A stretch of DNA of 64,000 bases, from NCBI GenBank assembly GCA_963798465.1, contig CAWCTC010000001.1:260315-324314 (forward strand), given 5' to 3'. The position numbers and the translations under genes were made by a program. How positions within the stretch are numbered: position 1 is the first letter of the stretch; each line of letters starts with the position of its first letter. The notes under the pieces were generated by a model. That model saw only the letters and a program-made list of their open reading frames with translations. It was not told the DNA's origin and made no database searches. This DNA comes from an uncultured bacterium. Its GTDB lineage: Bacteria > Patescibacteriota > Minisyncoccia > Phycocordibacterales > GWA1-40-21. Positions 2,022-47,562 of the stretch are shown piece after piece.

Positions 2022-2054
2022 TGCATTTTATTTTAGCATATAAAATCTTAGATT

Positions 2055-2572
2055 TTCCCCGATGCTCTGCATCGGTCCACATGCTATAGTTGGCTAATGC
2101 AACATATACGTAAGAAGCACAACGTTTCTCTAATCATTTACCACCTAGTTTGTCCATCGAAGTATAGAAGAGAAATTTTTTCTGAAGGGGTTTCAACCAC
2201 TCTCAAACAGACTTGTTTGGAATTGGGTAATAGATATGAAATCAATTTTCTAGAAATTGGTACAGATGATAACCATGTACACTTTCTAATACAGGCAATT
2301 CCAAACATGTCTGTGACTAGTATTGTAAAAATAATCAAAAGTATTACAGCAAAGCAAATATACAAATATCACCCCGAAGTAAAAAAATTTCTCTGGGGCG
2401 GAAACATTTGGACTGCGGGTTATTATGTAAATACGGTAGGACAATATGGAGATTTGAAAATGATACAGAACTATGTAAAAAAACAAGGATTATCAAACTA
2501 CAAACAATTACACATACAACTTCCATATTGTCCGCATGACGAATACCTCGTCAGCTCTGCTGCGAGGTAGTT
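2055..2572 (+). mobile_element. IS200/IS605-family insertion sequence (tnpA only)
   Basis: A Y1 transposase gene is bracketed by subterminal hairpins sharing a TCT loop. Left hairpin CCGATGC-TCT-GCATCGG (2059-2075); right hairpin ACCTCGTCAGC-TCT-GCTGCGAGGT (2545-2568, one bulge). No long terminal inverted repeats, as expected for this family. Confidence 0.75.
2097..2570 (+). CDS. tnpA: IS200/IS605-family Y1 (HUH) transposase TnpA
   Basis: 157 aa. HUH motif HVHFL and the catalytic-Tyr region WTAGYYVNTVG. Confidence 0.9.
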   Translation: MQHIRKKHNVSLIIYHLVCPSKYRREIFSEGVSTTLKQTCLELGNRYEINFLEIGTDDNHVHFLIQAIPNMSVTSIVKIIKSITAKQIYKYHPEVKKFLWGGNIWTAGYYVNTVGQYGDLKMIQNYVKKQGLSNYKQLHIQLPYCPHDEYLVSSAAR

Positions 2573-2645
2573 TATTTTAAAGAAACATGACAAAGAAAAA
2601 CCCGGAAGCAAAAACTTCTGGGTTTTTAATTTTCTCTGAGCTTTC

Positions 2646-2882
2646 CTATCTGCGCCAGTGCCTGTACTGTCCGTAATTTCTCACAGTATATCTGCAATTA
2701 TGAATATAATGCGGATAACTGTTGTAATAGTAATTTTCGGGCAAGTACACGGGCGCCTGTTCCTCGACAATCACACTATTTTCATTTTCATAAGCGCTGT
2801 CGGGGACAACGAGAAGAAAAGAACATCCTGTCGCCAAAAAGGCTAAGACAAACGCAAACAAGAGAAACATTATTTTTTTCAT
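2646..2882 (-). CDS. Small putative lipoprotein, unknown function
   Basis: 78 aa. Signal peptide with lipobox LATGC, Tyr/Asn-rich mature part. A hairpin at 2596-2626 follows the stop. Confidence 0.55.
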   Translation of the reverse strand: MKKIMFLLFAFVLAFLATGCSFLLVVPDSAYENENSVIVEEQAPVYLPENYYYNSYPHYIHNCRYTVRNYGQYRHWRR

Positions 2883-2972
2883 GTTTTTCCCTCCTTTTTT
2901 TGAACTTTGTATTTCTGAATATAAGAGTATAGGAAGGGGAAATGGTTGTCAATCTGAATATTAATACAATTT

Positions 2973-2999
2973 AAAAACCACCTAAAAAGGTGGTTTTTA
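2973..2999. terminator. Stem-loop AAAAACCACC-N6-GGTGGTTTTT
   Basis: 10-nt inverted repeat with A/T runs in a non-coding stretch. May mark the left edge of the accessory region. Confidence 0.45.
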
Positions 3000-3262
3000 A
3001 AATGTGGACATAAGGCGTAAAACACTAAGTCAGCTAAAAGACTACCTCTTAAGGTTTTGGAACTACTATAATTCGAGTATAAATCTACAAAAAGCCCTTG
3101 AAAATGGCTGATATTTTGATCTAGAAAGGTACACAAATAGGGTATTTAATGGTTATTATTGGCTATAAAATGCTAAATTTGACATAAAAATGTCTAAAAA
3201 TAGACTTGACATATAATTTCACATAGACTATACTCTAATTATAACAATAATTTGTTAAAATT

Positions 3263-4498
3263 ATGATAACAAAAACAAGAGTTGGTAATTATTATTCTAT
3301 AGGTAAGGAGATAGAGTTAGAGTTTTTAAAAGGTGGTTCAAAAAAAGAGGACGGGTATTTTCTCTACAAAAATAATGAGAAAGTATCATTAATAAATGGT
3401 TTTTTTGGAGCAAATGCAAGTGGAAAAACTAATTTACTGAGATCAATGGTTGGTCTTATTAGGATAATGTATACGGCATATTCTCCACAGGGTATTTATC
3501 CTATGCAGGGTGTTGTTGGAGAAGTTAAGTTGTGCGAGCCAAATGCACATAAAGATTTTAAAGATAAGCCTACAAAATTGGGAGCCGATTTTTTGTTTGG
3601 TAATAATTACTATACTTATAATTTGGAAATTAAAAATGGGAACGATATAGCAAAAGAAGAGCTTTATCTCACCACTCTTAATGTGAAATCTGCAAAGCCA
3701 AAGATGGTTTTTAACCGAGTAAATTCAGTTATTACTTTTGGCCCTGAGTATAAAGAATATGAAACATATTCGATGAACATAACAATTCAAAAACACCAGA
3801 CATTTATTTCCCACCTGATTAATTTGGGAGCGAAGTTGGTTGGCGATTTCATTAACAATAGAAACTCGTTCTTTCTAAAGAATGATGGGACTGATTCAAT
3901 GCTACCGCCACAAATCGCTGTTTTAACTAGAGCTTTTGCTTTGAATTCTCTTGATAAAGAGAAAAAAGATGAATTCTTAAAAACAACCAAAGATATTATG
4001 AGCTGTTTTGATGATTCTATTGATGATTTGAAAGTTAATACTGAAAATAATAGTATATCTATTAAAGTTGCACATAAAAACTTCTTAAAGACTATTGATA
4101 TACAGCAAGAGTCAGCAGGAACAAGAGAATTATTTTGTTATATCTATGACATATTAAGTACTATTAAAAAAGGAGGTGTTGTAGTATACGATGAAATAAA
4201 TAGATATTATCATCCAGATGTAGAAGTTGCTCTAATTTCAATTTTCAAAAATCCAGAATTTAACACAAAAAATGCACAGTTATTTTTTGCTTCACATAAC
4301 CATGAGACTTTTGATTTGTTGGAGTTAGATCAGGCGTATATTATAGAAAAAATAGACTCATGTTCTTCCGTATATAAATTATCAGAAATTGAAAATTTAA
4401 AGAAAAGAGATAGTTTAAAGAAAAAATACAGGCTTGGTATGCTTGGAGGGGTTCCTGATGCAACGACTCTCGATTATAAACTTAAGCAACTCCTATAA
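3263..4498 (+). CDS. AAA_21/ABC-like ATPase, AbiLi/RloA-type (defence-associated)
   Basis: 411 aa. Walker A GANASGKT, Walker B-like VVVYDEI, FASHNHE near the C-terminus. The stop overlaps the next start (TAATG). Confidence 0.75.
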   Translation: MITKTRVGNYYSIGKEIELEFLKGGSKKEDGYFLYKNNEKVSLINGFFGANASGKTNLLRSMVGLIRIMYTAYSPQGIYPMQGVVGEVKLCEPNAHKDFKDKPTKLGADFLFGNNYYTYNLEIKNGNDIAKEELYLTTLNVKSAKPKMVFNRVNSVITFGPEYKEYETYSMNITIQKHQTFISHLINLGAKLVGDFINNRNSFFLKNDGTDSMLPPQIAVLTRAFALNSLDKEKKDEFLKTTKDIMSCFDDSIDDLKVNTENNSISIKVAHKNFLKTIDIQQESAGTRELFCYIYDILSTIKKGGVVVYDEINRYYHPDVEVALISIFKNPEFNTKNAQLFFASHNHETFDLLELDQAYIIEKIDSCSSVYKLSEIENLKKRDSLKKKYRLGMLGGVPDATTLDYKLKQLL

Positions 4499-5034
4499 TG
4501 AGTCGATTGGCAATACATAAACAAAGAGACACAGTAATCACTTTCTGTGAGGGAGAAGCGGAACTACAACTTTTTGCTTTTTTGAAAAGCCAATACTCAA
4601 ATAAAAAAGTAACTTTTAAAGCAATTAATCTTAAGGGTGTTGCCGATCTAATTTCCTTTAAGAGGAAATATAATAAACAGATGAAGAGTCAGGGTCTTAA
4701 ACCCAAGAAAGATTTTGCTAATGTTAGGTATTTATTTATCATTGATAATGATTTGATAGATTCAGACAAAATAATAGCCTTTTTGAAGACATCAGGACAT
4801 CTAGTTCAGGAGCTTGAACCAAATGCGGAAGGTTTGATGTTAGGTCTAGCAGGACAAAGTCAGGGAAATAACCTTAAAACAGATGTATTTAGAAAAAAGT
4901 GTAAAGAAAATTTCAAAAATCAATTTAATTGCGATGCGCATCAATTAAAAGAATCGAAATTTAAAGAGATCTTTAATAGCGAAACTATTTTAAAGAATAA
5001 ATTACCTGTTCTACACAGTTTATTCAAAGCATGA
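4498..5034 (+). CDS. RloB/AbiLii-like (Toprim-type) protein, partner of the ATPase
   Basis: 178 aa. N-terminal VITFCEGEAELQLF resembles the RloB ...CEGExTE..YF motif, and LFIIDNDLID supplies a DxD-type acidic motif. Translationally coupled to the upstream ATPase. Confidence 0.6.
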   Translation: MSRLAIHKQRDTVITFCEGEAELQLFAFLKSQYSNKKVTFKAINLKGVADLISFKRKYNKQMKSQGLKPKKDFANVRYLFIIDNDLIDSDKIIAFLKTSGHLVQELEPNAEGLMLGLAGQSQGNNLKTDVFRKKCKENFKNQFNCDAHQLKESKFKEIFNSETILKNKLPVLHSLFKA

Positions 5035-5105
5035 TTTGTGCTCATCGTTATCATTATTTCAGGTTACTAAAAATGCCATTGATTTAGTAAAAGTAAACGA
5101 ACTTA

Positions 5106-5786
5106 ATGAAGTACCATCATAAAAAAATGAATATGATATGTTTTGACAAGGCTGAATTAAGAGCTATTTTTGAAGCACCTTCCAGGAAACAGTTGAGAGA
5201 AACTGTATTGAAAGACGGACATATGCCGATAGAGCTTCTTCTTGATGAAACAAAAATGCGAGAAATTGCTGAAAAGATTAAAATTATTAATGATAAAGAG
5301 GAAAATGAAATTTTCTGTGCATTGTACGTGTTTCCCGAGTTTTACAAAAAGGAAAGCAAAATTTGTTTTCTATTGAAAGATGGTATCGATCCCCGAAAAG
5401 AGCAAATTGATTCTCTGAAAAAATTAAAGATTTCTTTAAAAGAAAATGATTTGACCGATTTCTTGCTCTGGCATGATGATGGCGTTAGGGCTTATCAATT
5501 AAAATCATATAGAGGAAAAACTGAGATTAACGACTTTTTGAAATTTCTTGAAGAAAAATTATTGCACTACAGCAATGATCTTGGAGAGACTAATCTATTG
5601 ATTAATTTACAATCTGAAGGTGATCTGACGGGTGATTTTTTTCAAGATGTTCATGAAAAATTAAAAAAACTTAAAGTAAGAGGTACGGGTCACGTTATTA
5701 TTTCATATAACGAAGAAAATAAGTTTGATGTAATGGTTACCGTATATCCAATCCTTGGAACAACTAGAATTCCACAAAAATCATGA
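5106..5786 (+). CDS. Hypothetical protein (226 aa), coupled to the downstream HEPN-motif protein
   Basis: Long ORF with no motif I can assign. Its stop overlaps the next start (ATGA at 5783-5786). An 8-bp hairpin TTACTAAA..TTTAGTAA lies upstream at 5064-5090. Confidence 0.6.
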   Translation: MKYHHKKMNMICFDKAELRAIFEAPSRKQLRETVLKDGHMPIELLLDETKMREIAEKIKIINDKEENEIFCALYVFPEFYKKESKICFLLKDGIDPRKEQIDSLKKLKISLKENDLTDFLLWHDDGVRAYQLKSYRGKTEINDFLKFLEEKLLHYSNDLGETNLLINLQSEGDLTGDFFQDVHEKLKKLKVRGTGHVIISYNEENKFDVMVTVYPILGTTRIPQKS

Positions 5787-7573
5787 TTAGAAAAGAATTA
5801 AAAGATTATCTTGATCAGCTAGAAACTGAAATTAAACCAATTGAGGAATTCAATCTTGGAGAAAAGATTTCAGAAATTCTAGATACAAAAAATGTAAAGA
5901 TTACTGACAAGGAGGAATTAGCCGAATATATTGCTTTTGAGTTTTTGGCTGATTATTCAAATAAAGAAAGTGGTTGGGGTACTTATTATGGCCCTATGAT
6001 GGTTTGGAAAACGAAAGAGAGCGGTTTCATTGAATTTCCGAGTATTAAACAGGTTGATAAAGAAACTTTAGTTTATTGGGAAAAAAGAGCAGGTGAATGC
6101 AAACACCCAATTTTAATATATCGCTATGCTGACTTAGTTTTTGATTTTGGACCAAAAGTTCTTAATAAAGGGATTGATTTTAAGATAGCGCAAAAAGTTA
6201 TAGATTCTGGAATAGAAGTTTGTACCGCTGGTTTAGATGATGGTTTAGGGTGTAAATCAAAACTCGAACGCTGTTTGCGTTTAGCGGTTCAAATTAATGA
6301 TAGTGTAAGAATAGAAAAACTAAAGACAGTTATTATTGAAACTGAGATTAAATATGCGGAAGATGATAAACCTGGTCTCTGGGGTTATGCATTTCAATGG
6401 TTAGTTTTTGATAAGACTGGAAAGATAATTTTATCTGATATTGAAAAAACAAAATTATTAAATGATCTCGAGGATCGTCTAAAGAGATTGATGGCAATGG
6501 ACACCATAGATTCTTGGCGTGTTGAGTGTGCGGTCAAATTACTTGCACCATATTACTCAATGAATCACGACGAAATTAATCTTAAAAGAGTCCTAGATGA
6601 CCTTGAATCTTCATATAGAAAAGATACATATGCTAATTCTGATGGAATGTTAATTAGTAATTACCTTGAGAAATTTATTGATATATATCTGGATTATTCT
6701 GCTTTCGAGTTTGCAAAAAAGGCACGTGAAAGGATAGTAAACGAATTGAGTAATCTGGGTGAACGTGGTAAGTTTGCGATGCAAGAAATTTCTACAGAAG
6801 TAACAATTAAGAATGAAGATGTTGATAAATTTATCAAAACTATATTTGGTGAAAATGATTCTAGTGTGTTAGAAAAAGTTATAGCAAGAATTGTAACTCA
6901 GTTTATTCCTCGTAAAAAAGCGGTAGAGACACAACTTAATAATTTAGCTAAGGATCATCCACTTACGTATTTAGTTAGTCATACTTTGTCTTCTGAAGAT
7001 GGCTACCCGATTACTAAATTTGGTTCAATTGATGAAGATTATGACAAACATTTGTTAGAGAATTTTTCCCATAACCTTCATTATCAAACCATGTTTTTAA
7101 AGGTTGTATCGGATAAGTTTTCGAAGACATATACACCAGAACAAATCACTGAATATATTCTTCTGTCCCCAGTTTTTAGAATTGAAGACAAAGAATATAT
7201 TTTAAAAATATTTAAATCACTTTCAGAAAAAGATTATTTAACTGTGTGTTGTTTAAGTATCCCACTAATTGAAGATTCGGTTAGAAATCTTTACCGTATT
7301 AATAATCAGACATATATTAAAGCAAATAATTTTGATGGCTATGATGTTATGAATCTAGATACACTTTTAGGAAGAGGTCTTATAAGAAATATTTTTCAGA
7401 CAATGGGTGATGATGTAGAATATTATTTGAAAGTATTATTAACTGAGAGAATCGGTTGGAATTTAAGAAACAATTTTGCTCACGGAATTAATAAAAAATT
7501 ATTTATGGATGAATCTGTAGCAGATCGTCTGGTCCATGTATTATTTTGTCTTTCTATGATTAGAAAAAAATAA
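5783..7573 (+). CDS. Large hypothetical protein with C-terminal Rx4H HEPN-type motif (DUF4209-like layout)
   Basis: 596 aa. The C-terminal ..ERIGWNLRNNFAHGINKK..ADRLVHVLFCL contains R-N-N-F-A-H (Rx4H). The rest is unassignable by eye. Confidence 0.6.
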   Translation: MIRKELKDYLDQLETEIKPIEEFNLGEKISEILDTKNVKITDKEELAEYIAFEFLADYSNKESGWGTYYGPMMVWKTKESGFIEFPSIKQVDKETLVYWEKRAGECKHPILIYRYADLVFDFGPKVLNKGIDFKIAQKVIDSGIEVCTAGLDDGLGCKSKLERCLRLAVQINDSVRIEKLKTVIIETEIKYAEDDKPGLWGYAFQWLVFDKTGKIILSDIEKTKLLNDLEDRLKRLMAMDTIDSWRVECAVKLLAPYYSMNHDEINLKRVLDDLESSYRKDTYANSDGMLISNYLEKFIDIYLDYSAFEFAKKARERIVNELSNLGERGKFAMQEISTEVTIKNEDVDKFIKTIFGENDSSVLEKVIARIVTQFIPRKKAVETQLNNLAKDHPLTYLVSHTLSSEDGYPITKFGSIDEDYDKHLLENFSHNLHYQTMFLKVVSDKFSKTYTPEQITEYILLSPVFRIEDKEYILKIFKSLSEKDYLTVCCLSIPLIEDSVRNLYRINNQTYIKANNFDGYDVMNLDTLLGRGLIRNIFQTMGDDVEYYLKVLLTERIGWNLRNNFAHGINKKLFMDESVADRLVHVLFCLSMIRKK

Positions 7574-7616
7574 TCATAGTACACATAGGGTTGGCTAAAT
7601 CAGAAGAAGTTAATTT

Positions 7617-7812
7617 TTTACATTATATTTTTATATGATATAATACTGGTACAACTGAATAAGAAAGTAATCTAAACTAGTAAGTAATTACTGGCATGAT
7701 GAAAAGAAAGTCGTATAAGGCATAAAAAACCCATCATGGGGTCGCCTTATACGCTATATCGGGAAACTGGTATAAGTGGCTTCGGCCACTACCCGTGATG
7801 GGCTTTTTGTTT
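7617..7812 (+). promoter_or_regulatory. Promoter plus structured leader or small RNA with alternative pairings and a terminator-like end
   Basis: TTTACA (7617-7622), 16-nt spacer, then TGaTATAAT (7636-7644). Downstream, CGTATAAGGC (7712-7721) and GTATAAG (7771-7777) can each pair with GCCTTATACG (7744-7753). There is a GTGGC-TTCG-GCCAC hairpin (7778-7791). CCCATCATGGG (7730-7740) can pair with CCCGTGATGGG (7793-7803), which is followed by CTTTTTGTTT. Confidence 0.4.
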
Positions 7813-7858
7813 ATAAAAACTCATCATAGGTAATTATCAGTTTTAATAAACAAAAAGT

Positions 7859-8101
7859 ATGAAAGATTCTATTTGTACAACGTGTGGTTATGTAGGAAAG
7901 CCAATCAAGCTTGTTAAGGGGAGTTTTGCTATCGAGTTGTTTCTTTGGCTCTGTTTCTTTGTTCCAGGCTTTATTTACTCTATTTGGAGATTAACAAGCA
8001 AGATAGATGTTTGCCCTAAGTGTAAAAATCCCAACATGATCCCCATTGACTCTCCTGTGGGACAAAAGCTTGTTGGAGAACACCAACATCCCAAGGCTTA
8101 A
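7859..8101 (+). CDS. LITAF-like zinc-ribbon membrane protein
   Basis: 80 aa. CTTC knuckle, a hydrophobic helix (AIELFLWLCFFVPGFIYSIW), then a CPKC knuckle. This is the split zinc ribbon with embedded membrane segment typical of LITAF/SIMPLE-like domains. Confidence 0.55.
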   Translation: MKDSICTTCGYVGKPIKLVKGSFAIELFLWLCFFVPGFIYSIWRLTSKIDVCPKCKNPNMIPIDSPVGQKLVGEHQHPKA

Positions 8102-8145
8102 TAGGGTACTTGCATAAATTATACATATATGTATAATTCTCTATT

Positions 8146-8976
8146 ATGAATAATTTAGATAATTTAATAGACCTGATAGGTGAAAACGATATCGTTATTA
8201 AGGGTGTTTCTAGTGAATACCAAAAGCCAGAATTTGCTGACAGAATAAAATCTTTTTTTCGTGAAAAAAGATTCACCGTTAAAGATACAGGTGTCTCATA
8301 CCGAATGATAAATCACTGGAAAGATGTGGGGATCATTCCCGACTCTTGTTTTGATGATAAGAATCAAGATTGGGCAAAGTTCAACCTTGTGGAGCTATTG
8401 TGGCTAAAGGTAGCCAATGAATTAAGATCTTTTGGTTTACCTTTAGAAAAAATAAAGAGAGTTAAAAAAGATATTTTAATTTGGAATGAGAAACAACAAA
8501 CTTACCTAGATTTTGAGTACAGGATATACCTTTCTATAACTACTAAATCTGACCTGTTTTTATTTATCGAATCTGATGGATCTACTCAGATTCAGAGTCT
8601 TAATTTTTTCATTTTTATGAAAAATATTTTAAATAGTTTTGGGTGGAATTTTCCGAAGATGATACTGATTTCTATGAAAGATTTAGTTAAAGACTATGTC
8701 TTTATGGTTGAACGACCAGATGATATTTTATCTATCTCAAAACCAGAGATGGAGTTATTAAACAAGATAAGACTTGGAACAGGTAATAAAATTACTGTTC
8801 ATAAAAAGGATAGAAAAATATCTGATATTCTTACGTCTGATTTTATGACAGAGAATATCGATATATCAAAAGTCATGAAAAATTTAAAGGAGGAAGGTGG
8901 TAATACTGAGGTAGTTCTAAAATTAAATAATGGTAATCCAGAGTTTTTAGAGGTAAAGAGGAAAAAAAGAGTGTAG
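8146..8976 (+). CDS. Hypothetical protein with N-terminal MerR/excisionase-like HTH
   Basis: 276 aa. RFTVKDTGVSYRMINHWKDVGII resembles the MerR/HTH_17 helix-turn-helix. The remainder is unknown. Confidence 0.4.
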   Translation: MNNLDNLIDLIGENDIVIKGVSSEYQKPEFADRIKSFFREKRFTVKDTGVSYRMINHWKDVGIIPDSCFDDKNQDWAKFNLVELLWLKVANELRSFGLPLEKIKRVKKDILIWNEKQQTYLDFEYRIYLSITTKSDLFLFIESDGSTQIQSLNFFIFMKNILNSFGWNFPKMILISMKDLVKDYVFMVERPDDILSISKPEMELLNKIRLGTGNKITVHKKDRKISDILTSDFMTENIDISKVMKNLKEEGGNTEVVLKLNNGNPEFLEVKRKKRV

Positions 8977-9073
8977 GTGTATCTTGCCATCAACGATACG
9001 GTTGGGGTAATTTAAAAAAAAGAGATGTTTGCTATCAATAAAACAATTGGAGCTTAGTCGCAAAAACATATGA

Positions 9074-9244
9074 GTGAAAATAACAAAAGAAGAATATCGA
9101 AAGATATCGGGAGACTATTTTTCCCCAGACTCTCTAGTAGAGAGAAAAATCGAGTATCTAACGGCTTTTTGTAAAAATATCATAAAGGCTGAAATAGAGA
9201 GGTATCGTGAGTCTTTGAAGCAAAATAAGGCTGTTAAGGGCTAA
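9074..9244 (+). CDS. Possible small ORF (56 aa, GTG start) upstream of the recombinase
   Basis: Open frame MKITKEEYRKISGDYF...KQNKAVKG, below the ORF-track cutoff. No homology recognised, so only weakly supported. Confidence 0.2.
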   Translation: MKITKEEYRKISGDYFSPDSLVERKIEYLTAFCKNIIKAEIERYRESLKQNKAVKG

Positions 9245-9270
9245 AATTAGCCCTAAAAGGAGTTATTACA

Positions 9271-9360
9271 ACAATACGCGCGCGTGGGAAGGGAGTTTTG
9301 CGATAAATACGCGCGGGTGAGGGAGTTTCGCCACCAATACACGCGGGCGCGCTAGACTAA
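9271..9360 (+). repeat. Three GC-rich direct repeats (AATACGCGCGGGTG-GGGAGTTT-GC) immediately 5' of the recombinase gene
   Basis: Copies start at about 9273, 9306 and 9346, the last truncated. They are strikingly GC-rich compared with their surroundings. Copy 1 contains the palindrome ACGCGCGCGT. Confidence 0.6.
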
Positions 9361-10971
9361 GTGTTCAATCTTGATAACTTTATGATTAAGACAAAAATTA
9401 AACAGAATAATCCAAATAACCCCTATGAAGAGAGGACGGGTCTTGTTTATGTCCGTGTATCAAGTAAACGACAGGAGACCCAAGGAACTGGTTTACAGAG
9501 CCAAGAGGGGCGTTGTATTAAGGAACTAGAGTTAATGAAAGTTCCATATAAAGAAACCTTTCCCGATAGTTATTCAGGCGGAGGTGATTTTATGCTAAGA
9601 CCAGCGATGAGAGATATGATCGCGTATATAGATGCACACCCATACGAAAAATTCATCGTAGTATTTGATGATATTTCACGCTTTGCCCGTGATGTCGTTT
9701 ATCACATTAAACTTAGAGAGGTGTTTAGATCTCGTGATGTAATGTTAAAGTGTTTGAATTATAGCTTTGATGAAAGCGATGAAGGTTGGTATTCAGAGTT
9801 AATTCTTTCAGGAAAGGCGGAGTTAGACAGAAGACAGAATCGTAGACAAGTCATACAAAAACAAAAATCACGCCTTGAATTAGGATACTGGTCATTTGCG
9901 TCTAGAAAGCCTTATAAGATGACTAAAGACCCATTGCATGGCAATATACTCAAATTACAATATCCAGAGGCAGGTTGGCTCAAGGAAGCAATGGAAGGAT
10001 TTGCGGATGGTAGATTTATTAGAAAAATTGATGCTTGCAAATTTCTTCTCAAGAAAGGCTATTGGAAAAAACAATCTGTAGAAAAATATATAGATAATTT
10101 TTCTCTTTTATGTAAAGACGCCTTATTTGCTGGATACATCGAATATCCTGAATGGGAAGTAGAGAGGCGAAAAGGACATCATGAAGCCCTTATATCACTT
10201 GAAACATATAATCTTATTCAAAAACGTTTAAGGAATGAGGGTCTAGGAAAAAGAATTCGTGTAGATATATCGAAAGATTTTCCACTTAGGGGTTTATCTC
10301 TTTGTGCATATTGTAGTAAGCCCCTCACTGGTGCTTGGTCAAAGGGCAGGAAACAAAAACATCCATATTATTTTTGTCAGAATAAAATTTGCTTATACAA
10401 AGGAAAAGCTATTCGTAAAAAAGATATAGAAGAGAGTTTTGATAATTTACTTAAAAAACAGATTCTTAAAGGAAAAGCAGAGGTAGTCCTGAAAAGAGTT
10501 TTTGATTCTGAATGGATGGAAGAAATATCTAACTTAGAACTCTCCCAACATACCCAAGTAAAAAATAAAAAAGATCTTGAAGACCAACTTAGTGAATTGG
10601 TAAAGTTGTCTACGCGGGCCAAAGATCAATCAATTCGAAATGCTTATGAAAGGGAGATGAGGGATGTATCAGATAAGATCATTCAAATTGAGGATGATTT
10701 TCTACCTAATTTTGATACTAAGGTTCCTTATCGAACGGCTCTTGATAAAGCTACAGGTTTATTGAAAAGTCCTTATAAAGTATGGAAGGATCTTGATGTG
10801 ATAGAGCAACATAGTCTATTCTATTTTATTTTTGACACAAAAATACCCTATGACATAAAAGAAGGCTATCGAACCGATAGTATTCCAACTGCCATAAGGC
10901 TTTTTGAGGAATTTGCGACTGCAAATTCCTGTGATGTGGAGATGGGCGGAATCGAACCGCCGTGCAAATGA
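9361..10971 (+). CDS. Large serine recombinase (resolvase/invertase N-domain + recombinase + zinc-ribbon domains)
   Basis: 536 aa. GLVYVRVSSKRQ catalytic-Ser motif, Cys cluster CAYCSKPLTG...YYFCQNKIC, C-terminal coiled-coil-like region. GTG start (alternative ATG at 9382). The last codons are antisense to the tmRNA 3' end. Confidence 0.9.
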   Translation: MFNLDNFMIKTKIKQNNPNNPYEERTGLVYVRVSSKRQETQGTGLQSQEGRCIKELELMKVPYKETFPDSYSGGGDFMLRPAMRDMIAYIDAHPYEKFIVVFDDISRFARDVVYHIKLREVFRSRDVMLKCLNYSFDESDEGWYSELILSGKAELDRRQNRRQVIQKQKSRLELGYWSFASRKPYKMTKDPLHGNILKLQYPEAGWLKEAMEGFADGRFIRKIDACKFLLKKGYWKKQSVEKYIDNFSLLCKDALFAGYIEYPEWEVERRKGHHEALISLETYNLIQKRLRNEGLGKRIRVDISKDFPLRGLSLCAYCSKPLTGAWSKGRKQKHPYYFCQNKICLYKGKAIRKKDIEESFDNLLKKQILKGKAEVVLKRVFDSEWMEEISNLELSQHTQVKNKKDLEDQLSELVKLSTRAKDQSIRNAYEREMRDVSDKIIQIEDDFLPNFDTKVPYRTALDKATGLLKSPYKVWKDLDVIEQHSLFYFIFDTKIPYDIKEGYRTDSIPTAIRLFEEFATANSCDVEMGGIEPPCK

Positions 10972-11341
10972 TTGTTCCAGATATTTCTACAAAGTTTAGT
11001 TGATTTTATTTTGTCTTGCGACAAATTTAAGATTATGAACTTTAAAAAAACAAAATATTCATAATCCGATTCTCTTATTTCATTTTGCGCCGAGAAATCG
11101 CAAAATATATTCTGAAAATATTACACTTCAGACCACCGCTCAGAATCAGTGGGTGAAATGTCGCTTAGGCTAAAGCGTAAGCGAAAGTAGGAGTTGACCT
11201 CCAAAAATGGAGAAACAATACTCGCTACTTTTTGTGAAATGTTATTAGCATTTACATTTTCCTTGATAGATTTAGGAGTTCACAAGGTTGCTCTACTTTG
11301 CATATAAGAAACGGGACCAATTGTCTAGGCCGATCATCCCC
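10937..11341 (-). ncRNA. ssrA: tmRNA (SsrA)
   Basis: 5' end GGGGATGATCGGCCTAGAC. 3' end GGCGGTTCGATTCCGCCCATCTCCA. The acceptor pairs GGGGATG with CATCTCC, including a G3-U wobble (Ala identity). An internal reading frame ..ACT TTC GCT TAC GCT TTA GCC TAA (T-F-A-Y-A-L-A-stop, 11165-11188) resembles canonical tags. smpB lies next door. CCA is not encoded. Confidence 0.85.
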
Positions 11342-11346
11342 GTTGT

Positions 11347-11402
11347 CAGTATACTGTATTCAGTATTCTGTATACAGTATAACAATGCATAGTATACAGT
11401 AT
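11347..11402. repeat. Heptamer tract CAGTATA/CTGTATT x5 plus an extra AGTATACAGTAT, just 5' of ssrA
   Basis: cagtata ctgtatt cagtatt ctgtata cagtata runs contiguously over 11347-11381. On the minus strand a TATACT hexamer lies 7 nt upstream of the tmRNA 5' G. Confidence 0.5.
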
Positions 11403-11413
11403 TTATTATATAA

Positions 11414-11773
11414 TTATTTATCTATTGCAGATTTTATTATTCCAGATATTAATTTTGAACTTTGCTCAATCATTAAATCAAGTTCTTTGTAATCATTATC
11501 TGTTATATATCCTAAGTCTCTTGCTGTAATAAGCTGGCTCTGAAGTTCTGAAAGGGAACCTTTGGATATTGTATAAAACTGCACCTTATCTTTTTTAGTA
11601 TTTCTACTAAAACCTTCCGCTATATTGGAAGTAATTGATACAGATGATCTTCTAATTTGATCTGCTAGCGCAAATTTTTCTTCGTTCGGTAGTTTCTTTA
11701 ATATCTTGTAGACATTTAAAACTAACTCGTGAGATTTTTGCCAAGCGATTAAATTTGTAAAATTTTGTATCAT
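11414..11773 (-). CDS. Four-helix-bundle protein (23S rRNA intervening-sequence protein / Avd-like family)
   Basis: 119 aa. ..LIAWQKSHELVLNVYK...FALADQIRRSSVSITSNIAEGFSR...KGSLSELQSQL matches this family's conserved pattern. Confidence 0.85.
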   Translation of the reverse strand: MIQNFTNLIAWQKSHELVLNVYKILKKLPNEEKFALADQIRRSSVSITSNIAEGFSRNTKKDKVQFYTISKGSLSELQSQLITARDLGYITDNDYKELDLMIEQSSKLISGIIKSAIDK

Positions 11774-11797
11774 TTTTTATATACTAAATACTGTATA

Positions 11798-12247
11798 CTA
11801 TATATTTGATTTCAATGTTCTATCTATTTCTCTATCAGATTCGCGTTTCTTGATTGATTCGCGTTTGTCTGTTTTCTTTTTTCCTCTTGCAAGACCAAGT
11901 TCTACCTTAATCTTGTGGCCCATATTATACACTGAAAGTGCAACTATTGTCAAATTTTGTTTTTCTTTTCCAGCGAGATATTCAAGTTCTTTTTTTGTAA
12001 GCAAAAGCTTGCGATTTCTTCTTTCGTCATAATCTTTTGGTGTATTTTTCGGCTGAAGAGAAACTATTGCCGAGCCGATAAGAAATGCTTCGCCTCCGCG
12101 TATGACAGCATAGGCGCCATCCAAAGTCATTCTTCCTGCTCGAACAGCTTTGACTTCAATGCCGAGCAGCTGAATTCCTGCCGTGATTTTTTCAAGGATT
12201 TCATAATTGAAATATGCTTTTCTATTTTCCGCGAATTTGGCTGACAT
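11798..12247 (-). CDS. smpB: SsrA-binding protein SmpB
   Basis: 149 aa. NRKAYFNYEILEK..AGIQLLGIEVKA.R.G and the basic C-terminal tail are typical SmpB. Confidence 0.95.
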   Translation of the reverse strand: MSAKFAENRKAYFNYEILEKITAGIQLLGIEVKAVRAGRMTLDGAYAVIRGGEAFLIGSAIVSLQPKNTPKDYDERRNRKLLLTKKELEYLAGKEKQNLTIVALSVYNMGHKIKVELGLARGKKKTDKRESIKKRESDREIDRTLKSNI

Positions 12248-16078: not shown

Positions 16079-16086
16079 TATCGATG

Positions 16087-16160
16087 TACGCCCGCCTAGA
16101 TTCGAACTAGGGACCCCGAAGGTATAAGCTTCGTGCTCTAACCAGCTGAGCTACGGGCGT
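16087..16160 (-). tRNA. tRNA-Ile (anticodon UAU)
   Basis: The reverse complement folds as ACGCCCG-TA-GCTC-AGCTGGTTA-GAGC-A-CGAAG-CTTATAC-CTTCG-GGGTC-CCTAG-TTCGAAT-CTAGG-CGGGCGT-A. The anticodon loop C-T-TAT-A-C gives UAU. CCA is not encoded. Confidence 0.8.
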
Positions 16161-16194
16161 ATGTATGAGATATTATCGTAAAAAATGGCTTTTA

Positions 16195-16286
16195 GCAATT
16201 ATCAGCGACGTAGAGCGAGAGAAATTAAAAGTAATCTTTTAATTTCTGAGCCGAGGAGTCTGATATAAGAGCGAAGCTGCTTCTAT
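16195..16286 (+). repeat. Structured ~85-nt repeat, copy A (family with 46327-46424 and 46446-46512)
   Basis: ..ATCAG-CGACGTAGAGCGAGAG-AAATTAAAAG-TAAT-CTTTTAATTT-CTGAGCCGAGGAG-TCTGAT.. This copy overlaps the last ~20 codons and the stop of recG. Confidence 0.7.
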
Positions 16287-18448
16287 TCAAAATGTATTTC
16301 GTCCATTTTTCTATGCAGAAAGTTTTTCGTTTATCAAGAGGGAATTTTGAAAGAGTTTCATCTTGGGACAAAAAATATTCTGCTTCAGCTCGTGCGGCTT
16401 CCACCATTTTTAAATTTCTTATTGCTTCCATGCCGATATCAGAGATTCCCCATTGTTTGTTTCCGGAAAGTTCGCCTGGTCCACGAAGTTTCAAATCAAA
16501 TTCGGCAAGTTCAAAACCATTTGAAGAATTTTTAAATGCTTTGAGTCTAAGCAAAGTTTTTTCAGTTTTTGTTTCCGCAAAAACATAACAATATGCTTGA
16601 TGATTGCTTCTGATGACGCGTCCGCGAAGCTGGTGAAGCTGGGCGAGTCCAAATCTTTCCGCTCCTTCAATAATTATCACAGTTGCATTCGGAACATTTA
16701 CTCCGACTTCGACGACAGAAGTTGCGACAAGAATTTTTATTTTTCCGGATTTGAAATCATTCATCACTTTTTCTTTTTCGCCTTGCAGCATTTTGGAATG
16801 AAGAATTCCAATTTCATAATTTTGAAAAACATCTCGTTTCAATCTTTCAGCTTCTTCTTTTACGGACTTTGCAATAACAGCTTGTTCTTTTGCCGGATCG
16901 GGTTCATTTATTCTTGGACAAATCACATAAGCTTGTCTGCCTTCTGCCAGTAAATTTTTTATTTTTGTATAAGTATTTTCTCGTTCGTCCGGCAAAACAA
17001 TTTCGGTGATAATCGGTTTTCTTCCGAGAGGCATCTGATCAAGCAAAGTCAAATCCAAATCTCCGTAAATAGTTAGTGCTAAAGTGCGGGGAATCGGCGT
17101 TGCAGTCATCGAAAGAAGATGCGGATTCAACCCTTCTTTTCTTGTTATTTTTTGTCTTTGTGCAGTTCCGAAGCGATGCTGTTCATCGATTATAGAATAT
17201 GCCAAATGCTTGAATTTTACGGATTTTTGAATAAGCGCATGCGTTCCGATAAGAATCGGAATTTCGCCATTTGCAACCCATTTCAAAAGCTGAGTCTTGG
17301 AAATTTTGGTCCATTCTTTTGGATTTGTTTTTGAAGGAAATTTTCTGCATTCTTTTCCGGTGATGAGTCCAACATTTATTTTTAAGTAAGTAAAATATTC
17401 TATGAAAGATTCAAAATGCTGTTTTGCCAGAATTTCAGTCGGTGCCATATAAGCGACTTGAAGATTTCCGAAATTTTGTCCTTTTGGTTTTGAAGTGATG
17501 ATTGCAAATGCAGTTGCTGCAGCGACTGCTGTTTTTCCTGAACCGACATCTCCTTCAAGCAGACGCGACATTGCATGTCCGCTTCTGAAATCGATCATTA
17601 TTTGTTCAATGGCTTTATTTTGCGCTTCTGTCGGTGCGAATGGAAATCTTTCAACGAACTGCTCGATATCTTTCGGAGTTTTTTCAATAACATAAGAAGG
17701 ATTTTTATTCCAAAGAATTTTATCTCTTTTTTTCTGCAAGTTGAATGAAAAAAACTTCCTCAAATGCGAATCTTTTTCTTGCAGAAATCGCATCGCTCTT
17801 GTTTTTGCGGAGTGTGAATCCAGACAAGCGCGGTTTTTAAAGTCGGAAGATTGTAGGTTGTCCAGAATATATTCCGGAATCGGATCTTTTATATTGTCCA
17901 AAATTCCTGAACTGAAAATCTTTTTGTATTGCATGATAAAACCAATTTGAAGTGATGCCTTGGCTTTCCGGATAAACAGGATAAAGAGAATGAGCCTCGC
18001 CGTCTTCTCCAAAAAGAGAATCGCCGACGCCGATCGGTAGCTTTACGATCGTTTCTATTTTCGGATTTGATAAATAAAGTTCGCCGCGTCTGTCAGAAAC
18101 TTTTCCGTCGGCTCGGACAAAAGCATCTTCATGAATCATTTTTGCAATGTACGGCTGATGGAACCAAACAGCTTTTATTTTTCCGGATTCATCTTCAATC
18201 CAAGCTTCGGACATCGGAATTTTGCTTTTGAAACCTTTGCTTGTTTTAAGTTTCGTGATTTTTCCAAAGATTACGGCGCTTTCTCCTTCAATCAAGCTGC
18301 CGATATTTTTTTTCTCGGAAGTGTCGCCATATCTGACGGGGAAATGATAAAGCAAATCGCCCACGGTTTTAATACCGAGCTTTTTCAAGGCTATTTTCTG
18401 CGATTCCTGCAGGCGGAAATTGTTTTCAATCTGTGAATTCAAATCCAT
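16225..18448 (-). pseudogene. recG: ATP-dependent DNA helicase RecG, split by one extra base in an A5 run (possibly an artefact)
   Basis: ORF 17837-18448 encodes the wedge domain. ORF 16225-18012 encodes the helicase core (GDVGSGKT, IIDEQHRFG, QLHQLRGRVIR). The frames meet at CAAAAAG on the coding strand (T-run 17921-17925). With A4 the reading is ..WFYHAIQKIFSSGILDN.. Confidence 0.92.
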
Positions 18449-46110: not shown

Positions 46111-46157
46111 AAAATACAGGGAGGTTTTCGCTACGCGAAAACCTCCCTGTATTTTTA
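46111..46157. terminator. Hairpin AAAATACAGGGAGGTTTTCGC-TAC-GCGAAAACCTCCCTGTATTTT
   Basis: Perfect long stem 20 nt after the pilC stop. Confidence 0.8.
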
Positions 46158-46326
46158 ATGTCAAATTATAACTTTTTTGACTTATCAACACATGCTCTTT
46201 TCACATATTTATCTAAAAAGTTGTATAATTGCGGGGTAAGCTTGAATTCCGAAAGGAATCAGAAGTATTTTTTATTGGAAGTATTCTTACCTTGAGCAAG
46301 TTGAAGATGGCCAAACGAAAGTACAA

Positions 46327-46424
46327 GCAATTTATCGCCGACGTAGAGCGAGAGAAATAAAAAAGTAATCTTTTTTGTTTCCGAGCTGAGGAGGGCGATA
46401 TAAGAGCTAGAAGCTGCTTTTATT
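46327..46424 (+). repeat. Structured ~85-nt repeat, copy B
   Basis: ..ATCGCC-GACGTAGAGCGAGAG-AAATAAAAAAG-TAAT-CTTTTTTGTTT-CCGAGCTGAGGAG-GGCGAT.. Its flanks (GCAATTTATC.. and ..ATATAAGAGC.AGAAGCTGCTT.TATT) are shared with copy A. Confidence 0.7.
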
Positions 46425-46445
46425 AGTGTTATTAAATTGATTTTT

Positions 46446-46512
46446 AACGCCGACGTAGAGCGAATGAAATGAGAAAGTAATCTTTATCATTTCTGAGCCG
46501 AGGAAGGCGTAA
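46446..46512 (+). repeat. Structured ~85-nt repeat, copy C
   Basis: AACGCC-GACGTAGAGCGAATG-AAATGAGAAAG-TAAT-CTTTATCATTT-CTGAGCCGAGGAA-GGCGT, 34 nt upstream of the pilin gene. Confidence 0.7.
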
Positions 46513-46545
46513 AGATTTCAATATCTTATCGATAAAAATTTAATT

Positions 46546-46971
46546 ATGAAAATGAAAAAAGGTTTTACATTGATCGAACTTTTGGTGGTTATCGCCATCA
46601 TCGGTATTCTTTCATCAGTCGTTTTGGCTTCTCTAAACTCAGCAAGATCAAAAGGTGCAGATGCCGCAGTCCAATCAGGATTGAGCAACTTCCAAGCTCA
46701 AGCAGCTTTGTATTATAATAATGGTCAGACATATGGTACGTCTGCAGATTGTACTACAGGGGGAGTATTTATAGATCCACAAGGCGCAAGTATCATTGCA
46801 AATGTTAAATCAAATGCAAGCGGACAAAGTATTACATGTAATGCTGCCAGTACGACGTATGCCGTTGTAGCAAAATTATCAACAGCAGGAAGTTATTGGT
46901 GTGTAGATAGCAACGGTAATACCGGTGCTACAGCCTCTTCAACAATTGCTTCAGACGGCCTTTGTAAGTAA
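46546..46971 (+). CDS. pilA: Type IV pilin (probable major pilin)
   Basis: 141 aa. Class III signal MKMKKG|FTLIELLVVIAIIGILSSVVLASL, with Cys residues near the C-terminus (CVDSNG...GLCK). Confidence 0.88.
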   Translation: MKMKKGFTLIELLVVIAIIGILSSVVLASLNSARSKGADAAVQSGLSNFQAQAALYYNNGQTYGTSADCTTGGVFIDPQGASIIANVKSNASGQSITCNAASTTYAVVAKLSTAGSYWCVDSNGNTGATASSTIASDGLCK

Positions 46972-47262: not shown

Positions 47263-47562
47263 AATCCGTTAAAGTTTTTGCTAACGCATTATGCAATATC
47301 TATATGTATTACAAAGTAAGAAAAATGGCGAATTATATACAGGTTGTACCAAAGATATAAAAAATAGATTAATATTGCATAATGCCAAAAAAGTTACGTC
47401 GACGAAAAAAAGCGCGCCATTTGCACTTATATACTATGAAGCTTACATAAATAGCAAAGACGCGTATAATAGAGAAAAATATATGAAAACACAATATGGT
47501 AGAAATTATATCAAAAAGGTCCTAAGTAACTTTTTTATTAGCAAAAATTTTCTCGGATAAAC
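47263..47562 (+). mobile_element. GIY-YIG cassette, ORF-bearing copy (copy 2), abutting the start of the second pilin gene
   Basis: Left end AATCCGTTAAAGTTTTTGCTAACG, right end TTATTAGCAAAAATTTTCTCGGATAAAC-ATG. Two substitutions in the left arm (C to T twice) are matched by G to A changes in the right arm relative to copies 1, 3 and 4. Confidence 0.7.
47291..47560 (+). CDS. GIY-YIG nuclease-family protein (short, UPF0213/YhbQ-like)
   Basis: 89 aa. YLYVLQS..GELYTGCT.DIKNRL..H... then YYE and N..REK..K, matching the GIY-(x10)-YxG, R and E/N motif order. Confidence 0.85.
   Translation: MQYLYVLQSKKNGELYTGCTKDIKNRLILHNAKKVTSTKKSAPFALIYYEAYINSKDAYNREKYMKTQYGRNYIKKVLSNFFISKNFLG

Follow-up and report, generated by a model that had tools for sequence, protein, structure and literature searches.

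A structured gene-less repeat in a patescibacterial genome that may be spread by IS200/IS605-type transposition

The window analysed here, a stretch of 64,000 nt from an uncultured member of the Patescibacteriota (contig CAWCTC010000001.1, positions 260,315 to 324,314), contains three copies of a short element in which a conserved internal loop lies between two stems of variable sequence. Copy 1 is located between recG and a tRNA-Ile gene (16086-16160), both encoded on the minus strand, and is antisense to both of them; copies 2 and 3 are found in tandem upstream of a major type IV pilin-like gene. The window furthermore encodes an intact transposase of the IS200/IS605 family of insertion sequences (IS), TnpA, with the motifs HVHFL and GYYV (Table 1). 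A covariance model of the element core (R1), built from 125 homologues and run on the window with filters off, recovered exactly the three copies, all of them on the plus strand, with scores of 69 to 78.5 bits (E 4e-18 to 6e-21), and no other score in the 64 kb exceeded 13 bits.

The layout of the three copies corresponds to that given in a preliminary description of this DNA. The exact 12-mer GACGTAGAGCGA starts at 16207, 46340 and 46452 and occurs exactly three times in the window, and the 10-mer GAGCYGAGGA follows 29-31 nt downstream of each 12-mer (at 16248, 46383 and 46495); the 12-mer and the 10-mer are not complementary to each other. The outer stem, P1, reads ATCAG/CTGAT, ATCGCC/GGCGAT and ACGCC/GGCGT in copies 1, 2 and 3, respectively, differing in sequence with complementarity kept, as had been described. 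The same is true of the AT-rich inner stem, P2, which shows compensatory differences as well as G.U wobbles, the latter on the plus strand only. The predicted folds of the plus strand (-25.3, -34.3 and -24.3 kcal/mol for copies 1 to 3) are more stable than those of the reverse complement (-20.3, -23.4 and -19.5 kcal/mol). The units are longer than given in the preliminary description, running from just after a TTAY or TTAA tetranucleotide to a terminal (T)TAT, and copy 3 with its 3' hairpin reaches as far as 46529; the AAAG-TAAT-CTTT cap ascribed to all copies is frequent in the family but not universal. Protein coding was rejected on the grounds of indels with lengths not divisible by three and of reading frames that disagree between the copies.

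A search for the pattern GACGTAGAGCGA-N24-40-GAGCYGAGGA over 185,579 species genomes yielded at least 120 matching genome stretches. Among the matches listed, the fold is present in all but a chance match (L033; compared genome stretches and loci of relatives are labelled L001 etc.), and the label is Patescibacteria for most and another automated bin label for a minority; the listed lineages comprise Paceibacteria, Kaiser-, Yonath-, Vogel-, Nomura-, Zambryski-, Doudna-, Komeili-, Buchanan- and Shapirobacteria. The exact pattern gave no match in IMG/VR, and only short chance matches were obtained from the plasmids of PLSDB and the phages of INPHARED, on the basis of which a phage or plasmid origin was rejected. 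A known RNA family was dismissed as well, since at the gathering threshold no Rfam 15 family overlapped the window copies, the best permissive matches were to hairpins only (E ~1), and the long forms of the element in 18 loci returned tRNAs only. TIGR-Tas arrays, which occur in the Candidate Phyla Radiation (CPR) and use box C/D, differ from the element in architecture. As full-text literature searches revealed no description of the element either, the family is apparently undescribed.

The alignment of 125 distinct copies provides strong covariation in both stems. P2 is paired in 93% of cases with double changes in all 13 of its pairs, and P1 in 77%, which is an underestimate owing to an optional 1-nt insertion in some copies. 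Two-sided changes were counted in 433 cells compared to 108 +/- 10 in shuffled alignments, and all slid registers gave far lower values. The base after GAGCGA covaries with the base before GAGC (G-C in 107 copies, A-U in 12), leaving one bulged nucleotide. In P2, G.U and U.G pairs outnumber A.C and C.A pairs by 61 to 26 (GT 52 versus AC 15). While both stems drift by compensatory change, the 22 bases of the internal loop are nearly invariant across class-level lineages. This near-invariance is genuine and not merely an artefact of the search pattern, since R1, run on 663 kb of other loci, gave 110 matches of which only about 7 departed from the exact loop sequences, and these by single transitions. 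Additional copies and covarying stems, which the preliminary description had named among its tests, were both obtained (at least 120 matching stretches and strong stem covariation), and the asymmetric conserved internal loop that it had reported is real and reaches far beyond this genome.

Based on 126 copies the 5' edge of the unit is sharp. Conservation starts at (T)TTAY-NNGC, where positions -8 to -6 are T/T/A in 94-99% of the copies and -5 is a pyrimidine, and it falls to background upstream of -9, which argues against a fixed promoter; the 126 upstream flanks contain neither a positional promoter signal nor an extended target motif. Together with the lack of a promoter-like site upstream of copy 1, this led us to reject an independent small RNA gene. 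At the other end the units close with TTTAY, and the pyrimidines of both ends are correlated (41 T/T, 13 C/C, 7 discordant; p 5e-8). The base 5' of TTAY is not consistently duplicated. The only inverted repeat at the ends of the family is P1, the sequence of which is freely variable, and the flanks share nothing except TTAY. Taking into account the absence of conserved terminal inverted repeats and of a target duplication of fixed length, a classical MITE derived from a DDE transposon was excluded.

P1 is always followed on its 3' side by a further hairpin domain, which is closed by AGG...CCU or, in GC-rich lineages, by AAACCG...CGGUUU and falls into size classes of 15-54 nt and ~93 nt. In the long class two blocks consisting of AAUACC and a GC hairpin with a CUYUG tip flank a GCGA-GC-GAA-GC-GAGC hairpin. 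Full-length units measure ~165 nt and terminate in TTYAT, the range of the family being about 82-170 nt. As the final GC hairpin of the long forms is followed by CCUUUAUU, some of them may terminate transcription. In copies 1 and 2, which share the same 3' mini-hairpin subtype, only the central GAGCGAAGC (GCGAAGC) mini-hairpin of the long-form domain is left, and the 3' hairpin of copy 3, AAAGATTTCAATATCTTAT, is a plain AT hairpin ending 16 nt upstream of the pilin ATG. According to both the sequence reading and a scan with R2, a model of the IS200-like right end, none of the three window copies carries transposase-type hairpins. CUUG tetraloops were considered as evidence for RNA, G(CTTG)C being the commonest hairpin tip. 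This was abandoned, since C-T-Y-T-G tips also occur in the ends of tnpA-carrying IS copies and are therefore more likely to be transposase-recognition features. A search for split versions of the core containing an open reading frame (ORF) detected none, and few truncated or tandem partial copies. In four loci a complete unit is directly followed by a second complete or truncated core (L018 1170-1234, L046 3368-3416, L050 16-166 and L115 24-98), and some of the second cores in such arrangements are devoid of P2 or of the 3' loop strand.

The element behaves as a discrete mobile unit, as judged from the sequence comparisons. Paralogues of the same genome share near-identical whole units, and their homology stops at TTAT...TTTATT: this applies to L095 and L117 (166 nt, on different contigs and with compensatory differences), L022 and L040 (82 nt) and L094 and L107 (92 nt). 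The mean identity of the variable stems is 0.73 within genomes compared to 0.54 between genomes, with many pairs above the 99th percentile. At both window loci orthologous sites are either filled or empty, and 80 pilC-orthologous metagenome loci of relatives (405 kb) contain no copy at all. Furthermore, the copies occur in all four orientation contexts with respect to the neighbouring ORFs (++ 35, -- 18, +- 17 and -+ 16 of 86 copies) and are structurally intact to the same degree in sense and antisense orientation, so that the idea of better preserved sense copies was dropped. In 69 of the 105 cases considered (p 0.0017) the strand locally richer in G carries the sense sequence, a skew which is confounded with gene orientation. 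All-against-all clustering of 555 neighbouring ORFs of 127 copies did not reveal any recurrent partner; the neighbours belong to unrelated housekeeping families, the largest with five members, which excludes an associated protein gene. As the neighbours are unrelated and the downstream gene has the same orientation as the element in only 51 of 86 copies, a riboswitch or other cis-regulatory leader was rejected, too.

At the recG locus, L099 and L201/L202 carry copy 1 at the orthologous site, and in L203 and L204 this site is empty. The boundaries of the copy can be read as GCAATTAT^[CAGC...GCTTC]TATTC in comparison with the empty sites GCAATTAT^TATTC and GCAATTAC^TTACTC. The recG stop at the insertion is TAA-TAA in the empty sites, and in L201 it is a TAG formed at the junction. 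The RecG of L201 consists of 719 amino acids (aa) and ends in ...EIHFE-TAG at the position homologous to the edge of copy 1, and the ...IHFE terminus is found in every one of the 14 close homologues of RecG that were examined. The window recG contains a 1-nt insertion (cttGataaacg compared to cttataaacg in L201), and its ORF runs on to 16225. The 21-codon extension into copy 1 is thus caused by the upstream insertion, which shifts the frame past the normal stop. The earlier claim that copy 1 supplies the last ~20 codons and the stop of recG therefore describes the ORF in a purely mechanical sense, and an element-supplied RecG C-terminus was rejected in view of the frameshift and of the homologue ends. 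The window recG (16228-18448, minus strand) is also split into two overlapping ORFs (17837-18448 and 16225-18012), the homologues being single proteins of 719 aa; it represents either a pseudogene or the result of assembly or sequencing indels. In L201 (3470-3560) a duplicate of the first ~12 nt of tRNA-Ile stands apart from the intact tRNA, with an insert of ~60 nt in between, which looks like the scar of another integration event at this tRNA.

The tandem position of copies 2 and 3 upstream of the major pilin gene was confirmed. A promoter-like site precedes both copies, placing them in sense orientation inside a predicted pilin 5' leader of ~310 nt, and a TATAAT-containing motif is present at the corresponding place in L121 and L010 (aaaagttgtataat / aaaaggtgtataat). 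Copy 2 is missing from the related pilin locus L010, where the empty site reads gcgaaTTAT^TAGTtaattgattttta, and the arrangement in the window fits TTAT^[unit ending in TTAT]^TAGT. Copy 3 is present in L010 with compensatory changes in P1 (C-G to U-A) and in P2 (A-U to G-C). In the closest relative, L121, the contig ends exactly at the 5' edge of copy 2. AGCAATT is found 5' of TTAT at the sites of both copy 1 and copy 2 (16194-16202 and 46326-46335) as well as in the empty sites L203 and L010; the AGCAATT(T)AT flank is not family-wide and may be due to chance or to a lineage-specific extended target preference. The view that the element is not a simple terminator was borne out: a consensus scan called no terminator-like site in or beside any window copy, and the family occurs in all four orientations, for which reasons an intrinsic terminator was excluded.

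The same region contains a strong hairpin followed by a T tract after pilC (46117-46157, CAGGGAGGTTTTCGC-TACG-GCGAAAACCTCCCTG-TATTTTT), which is terminator-like but was not called by the consensus scan. A stand-alone GIY-YIG nuclease gene (47291-47560, plus strand, 89 aa, Pfam E 4e-14) is located between two pilin-like genes, and an ORF of ~90 aa of similar appearance, known from our own translation outside the Pfam scan, directly follows pilC in L122 (3817-4090). The two may represent mobile cassettes in the pilus locus.

A connection to IS200/IS605 transposition is suggested by the ends of the long forms. Members of this family have no terminal inverted repeats, insert 3' of a tetranucleotide outside the element and are recognised by subterminal hairpins and guide sequences (PMC3201880). 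The 6388 homologues of the window tnpA are mostly found on contigs of 0.5-2 kb, which indicates a multicopy IS. The left flank of five further tnpA-carrying copies (L205-L209) is TTAT^ or TAAT^, and their left ends read TTAT^TCCCAATACC followed by a hairpin; the right ends of tnpA-carrying copies consist of (A/G)ATACC, a hairpin and GG...TT(T/C/G)AT^. The right end of the window IS shares 96.9% identity over 32 nt with the 3' end of the core-bearing L013, and it aligns with the five other tnpA-carrying right ends and with six further long-form elements at their 3' ends. Applied to L001-L101, R2 gave 14 matches, and for 12 of these a core on the same strand is found no more than 110 nt further 5'. 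The tnpA gene of the window itself adjoins no element copy and is flanked by hairpins of the IS type, not by cores. In L207 (923-2208) a tnpA-carrying IS200-like copy splits an FtsJ-type methyltransferase gene into fragments 923-1507 and 2005-2208, which points to recent activity of the IS family.

In the right ends of the IS copies the fourth base before the hairpin foot pairs with the second base of TNAT (A:T, G:C and C:G), based on few cases and on registers set by eye. Likewise, the guide-like tetranucleotide before the last hairpin of the element is AA(N)A with TTAT and AA(N)G with TTAC (L036 and L118; L086 by hand), a correlation of small numbers and eye-set registers in which lineage effects are uncontrolled. 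The latter pattern is reminiscent of the guide rule known for IS608, TTAC/AAAG (PMC3201880). The proposal that the element is a DNA hairpin recognised by a transposase accordingly gains from the TTAY/TTTAY ends, from the homology of the long-form hairpins to IS ends and from the Y1 gene in the window, but this support concerns the transposase-type hairpins, a separate module which is missing from the window copies, and not the conserved loop as a recognition site. The loop may also have a protein- or ligand-binding role as RNA, the other alternative put forward in the preliminary description.

On this sequence evidence we consider the element to be probably a non-autonomous derivative of an IS200/IS605 transposon, similar to the palindrome-associated transposable elements (PATEs), which is mobilised in trans as single-stranded DNA (ssDNA) and carries a conserved structured module; we assign this reading a probability of roughly 0.58. 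Derivatives of the PATE kind that have no genes and are moved in trans have been described (PMC10055086). A Y1/HUH transposase such as that of the window would mobilise the element by the single-strand "peel-and-paste" route with insertion 3' of TTAY. The order of parts would be TTAY^, the P1-closed module, a linker with the guide, a left-end-type hairpin, the GA hairpin in place of tnpA, a right-end-type hairpin and TTTAY^. The P1-P2 module would thereby be carried in the left-end linker, 3' of the cleavage site and ahead of the first transposase hairpin, its ends being joined by P1. If the element is indeed mobilised as a single strand, selection would act on the folded top strand. The PATE model would account for where the units begin and end, for the missing terminal inverted repeats and the asymmetry of the strands, and for the independence of genes and promoters, the patchy distribution and the assembly breaks. 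Targeting of the lagging-strand template has been described for the IS200/IS605 family (PMC3201880, PMC5027513), and the bias towards the G-rich strand fits this. The window copies are reduced variants; they may be relics which are kept by selection, or they may be mobilised in another way.

Several observations speak against such a derivation from IS200/IS605. The left end of the window IS is defective, lacking the AATACC guide block of the other copies, so that this copy may be immobile yet able to supply transposase. The core was not found beside any of the six tnpA genes examined, and in 800 kb around 120 core-bearing loci no tnpA was found, the two being seen together in this window only. 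Short forms including the three window copies lack transposase-type hairpins although their subtypes are common to genomes and loci, and their recognition by TnpA is left unexplained. Equally unexplained by the model are the far stricter conservation of the P1-P2 module compared to the transposase hairpins and the absence of this module from all six autonomous copies examined, and we know of no documented precedent for a structured insert of 75 nt between the cleavage site and the guide. The orientation bias amounts to ~2:1 only and is, as mentioned, confounded. The empty recG sites read TTAT-TAT and TTAC-TTAC and not a single TTAY, where a clean donor joint would be expected from peel-and-paste transposition. 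Finally, three same-genome pairs (L046/L052, L050/L055 and L041/L048) share the core but differ in their 3' domains, so that the core may be an entity separate from the IS-type domain.

The 22-nt motif being far stricter than the transposase-binding hairpins implies a highly conserved interaction partner. We also entertain, with low confidence, that the left-end linker carries a cargo, the purine-rich P1-P2 module, which would constitute a nucleic-acid motif with a new function. It could serve as a scaffold for a conserved CPR protein, with a partner that is RNA-guided or binds RNA, as omega-RNA does, or through an interaction like that of a kink-turn (K-turn) with L7Ae. It could otherwise be a folded ssDNA signal by which reduced elements without transposase hairpins are mobilised. 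In either form single-strand transposons would carry and disseminate a structured module throughout a whole bacterial radiation in a manner not recognised before.

The strict loop could also be explained by a function for the host. A cis-acting structured RNA, for instance K-turn-like and involved in stabilisation, processing or translational control of the mRNA around it, here in the pilin 5' leader, with incidental or historical mobility and a secondary IS-like 3' domain, would agree with the excess of G.U over A.C in the stems, with the more stable plus-strand folds and with the compensatory differences between copy 3 and its L010 orthologue. The near-invariance of 22 loop nucleotides across class-level lineages is unusual for purely selfish DNA, and the loop can be drawn, by inference, as a C-G pair, a 3-nt bulge and G.A and A.G pairs. 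Moreover, a strong promoter-like site is separated from the pilin start codon by copies 2 and 3, conservation is higher in copy 1 than in the adjoining recG coding sequence (window compared to L099), and the family has a mild sense bias (52:34). We nevertheless regard this alternative as rather unlikely, since 18 of 86 copies, including the promoterless copy 1, are antisense to both neighbours and equally structured. In addition, no gene family is associated with the element, the 80 orthologous pilC loci are without it, filled and empty alleles have precise boundaries, and Rfam offers no match; G.T wobbles and tandem G.A pairs are tolerated in folded ssDNA as well.

Another kind of RNA would be an omega-RNA-like guide scaffold borne by a PATE. 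It would be read to the right-end boundary, with the flank as guide, a TnpB/IscB-like or other RNA-guided nuclease using it in trans for homing and TTAY as the adjacent motif. PATEs often encode omega-RNAs that are used in trans (PMC10055086), the conserved fold reaches exactly to the right-end boundary, the T-rich TTAY is a transposase target like the target-adjacent motifs of IS605, and the 7-nt AGCAATT flank is common to two window insertion sites and to empty sites. The short forms of ~85 nt are, however, below the size of known omega-RNA scaffolds and without Rfam match, and the upstream flanks generally lack an extended target motif. No TnpB, IscB or reverse transcriptase was detected among the window ORFs individually scanned against Pfam, in the family summaries or among the neighbours of 127 copies, and taken together this renders a guide scaffold very improbable. 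A repeat of the REP or bcr1 type would spread independently of an IS200-type transposase, either by site-specific recombination at TTTAT or by recombination or slippage, and would owe its IS-like ends to secondary PATE insertions. The mobility of the Bacillus cereus bcr repeats is tied to TTTAT, which is possibly duplicated on insertion, no transposase is known for them, and bcr1-18 have been reported to form secondary structures. The same-genome pairs with a common core and different 3' domains, the two TTAY units kept in the empty recG sites and the GTAG within the 12-mer, a tag of REPs (PMC3733652), would likewise fit. We consider this improbable given that right-end-type hairpins in the sampled loci are nearly always attached to a core and that L095 and L117 share the core and the IS-type domain as a single 166-nt unit. 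Furthermore, the tetranucleotide flank and the guide-like covariation follow the rules of IS200/IS605, the GTAG is 6 nt away from an AT-rich stem, unlike in REPs, and tnpA is flanked by IS-type hairpins.

Table 1. Coordinates of the element copies, the IS200-like element and further features in the window.
Feature	Position	Strand	Remarks
TTAT tetranucleotide directly 5' of copy 1	16199-16202	+	target or left cleavage-site motif; kept in empty sites L203 and L204
Copy 1	16203-16286	+	R1 69 bits, E 4e-18
Copy 1, P1	16201-16205/16260-16264	+	
Copy 1, 5' loop strand	16207-16218	+	GACGTAGAGCGA
Copy 1, P2	16219-16247	+	loop TAAT
Copy 1, 3' loop strand	16248-16257	+	GAGCCGAGGA
Copy 1, 3' mini-hairpin domain	16263-16286	+	ATATAAGAGCGAAGCTGCTTCTAT
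Ancestral in-frame recG stop	16283-16285	-	TAG, at 3' edge of copy 1; homologous position in L201
Promoter-like site	46200-46229	+	TTCACA-18-TATAAT, 11/12 consensus positions; upstream of copies 2 and 3 and the pilin gene
Copy 2	46336-46423	+	R1 78.5 bits, E 6e-21; -34.3 kcal/mol, z -5.2
TTAT 5' of copy 2	46332-46335	+	
Terminal TTAT of copy 2	46420-46423	+	
Copy 3	46448-46529	+	R1 74.7 bits, E 9e-20; TTAA 5' at 46444-46447
Major type IV pilin-like gene	46546-46971	+	ORF starts MKMKKGFTLIELLVVIAIIGIL; related L026 pilin matches Pfam N_methyl
IS200-like element	2030-2580		
IS200-like left-end hairpin	2059-2075	+	CCGATGC-TCT-GCATCGG
tnpA, IS200/IS605-family Y1 (HUH) transposase	2097-2567	+	157 aa, intact; Pfam PF01797 Y1_Tnp, E 1.9e-33, profile 2-121/121
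IS200-like right end	2537-2582	+	GAATACC, hairpin CCTCGTCAG-CTCTG-CTGCGAGG, TAG, TTTAT ending 2575; R2 46.8 bits
AAA_21/AbiEii-like ATPase	3263-4495		island
DUF4209 protein	5783-7570		island
LOOT RNA	7669-7790		island; 80 bits
Large serine recombinase	9361-10968		island; 3' end overlaps tmRNA (10934-11341, - strand)
Avd-like / 23S-rRNA-IVS protein	11417-11773		beyond the recombinase of the island
SmpB	11801-12247		after the Avd-like protein

Apart from the element and the IS, the window contains a probable integrated island (2600-11800) abutting the tmRNA gene, the genes of which are included in Table 1. Both the LOOT RNA and the taxonomy of all relatives retrieved identify the organism as a patescibacterium (CPR).

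Patescibacteria have streamlined genomes of ~1 Mb which are not usually thought to be rich in repeats. The family appears to be common among them, with at least 120 matches and three copies per 64 kb here, and through it a large number of CPR derivatives without genes becomes connected with a Y1 single-strand transposase. The element very probably breaks metagenome assemblies; a named family with a covariance model would improve the annotation of CPR genomes and explain contig breaks as well as spurious ORF extensions such as that of recG. It would furthermore provide a marker for strain-level insertion polymorphism. The pilus is thought to be important to these bacteria, and the location of two copies in the predicted leader of the major pilin mRNA suggests a possible effect on expression.

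Among known nucleic-acid motifs, the internal loop resembles the K-turns and tandem G.A sites bound by the L7Ae family, as it can be drawn, inferring from the sequence, with C13-G68, the bulge GUA, G17.A67 and A18.G66 followed by a G-C pair. A second tandem G.A is found next to P2, and the GCGA...GAGC motif recurs in the central hairpin of the long forms. A different register, with an 18:65 pair, would accommodate the variants A18 to G (with C65) and C65 to U (with A18), and a bulged-G motif is equally possible. The loop sequence would allow tandem sheared G.A pairs, arranged as in a K-turn or as in a bulged-G motif, both in RNA and in ssDNA.

Of the kinds of element known, IS200/IS605 PATEs, the REP/RAYT system and the bcr1-bcr3 repeats come closest. 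With REP/BIME sequences and their RAYT (TnpA-REP) enzymes the element shares short structured intergenic repeats, a relation to IS200/IS605 hairpins, a Y1 HUH enzyme, the GTAG and a frequent location at gene 3' ends. REPs are GC-rich palindromes of 20-40 nt with GTAG at the stem foot, usually in inverted pairs and flanking the RAYT gene, whereas the element comprises units of 85-170 nt with AT-rich stems, a conserved internal loop, a GTAG 6 nt from the stem and a tnpA flanked by IS-type ends. Based on the GTAG in the internal loop and the tnpA without flanking cores, membership in the REP/RAYT system was rejected. The repeats bcr1-bcr3 of the B. cereus group are similarly small (~100-400 bp), multicopy and intergenic, show TTTAT-associated mobility and secondary structure, occur in untranslated regions and operons and have no dedicated transposase identified (PMC6542083, PMC6199540, PMC3446304). 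Compared by description only, bcr1 is MITE-like and confined to one species group of Firmicutes, and the element, with its invariant loop and its ends of the IS200 type, is distributed over a large radiation.

The element differs from PATEs in its extra P1-closed module of ~75 nt with a near-invariant loop of 22 nt, which is placed between the left cleavage site and the first hairpin, is missing from the autonomous copies examined and is kept in reduced forms without transposase hairpins. Like PATEs, it contains neither an ORF nor terminal inverted repeats, is located 3' of a T-rich tetranucleotide, is strand-specific and has a Y1 transposase in the same window. Although the window copies lack them, the full-length members of the family carry, as PATEs do, subterminal hairpins homologous to those of tnpA-carrying elements.

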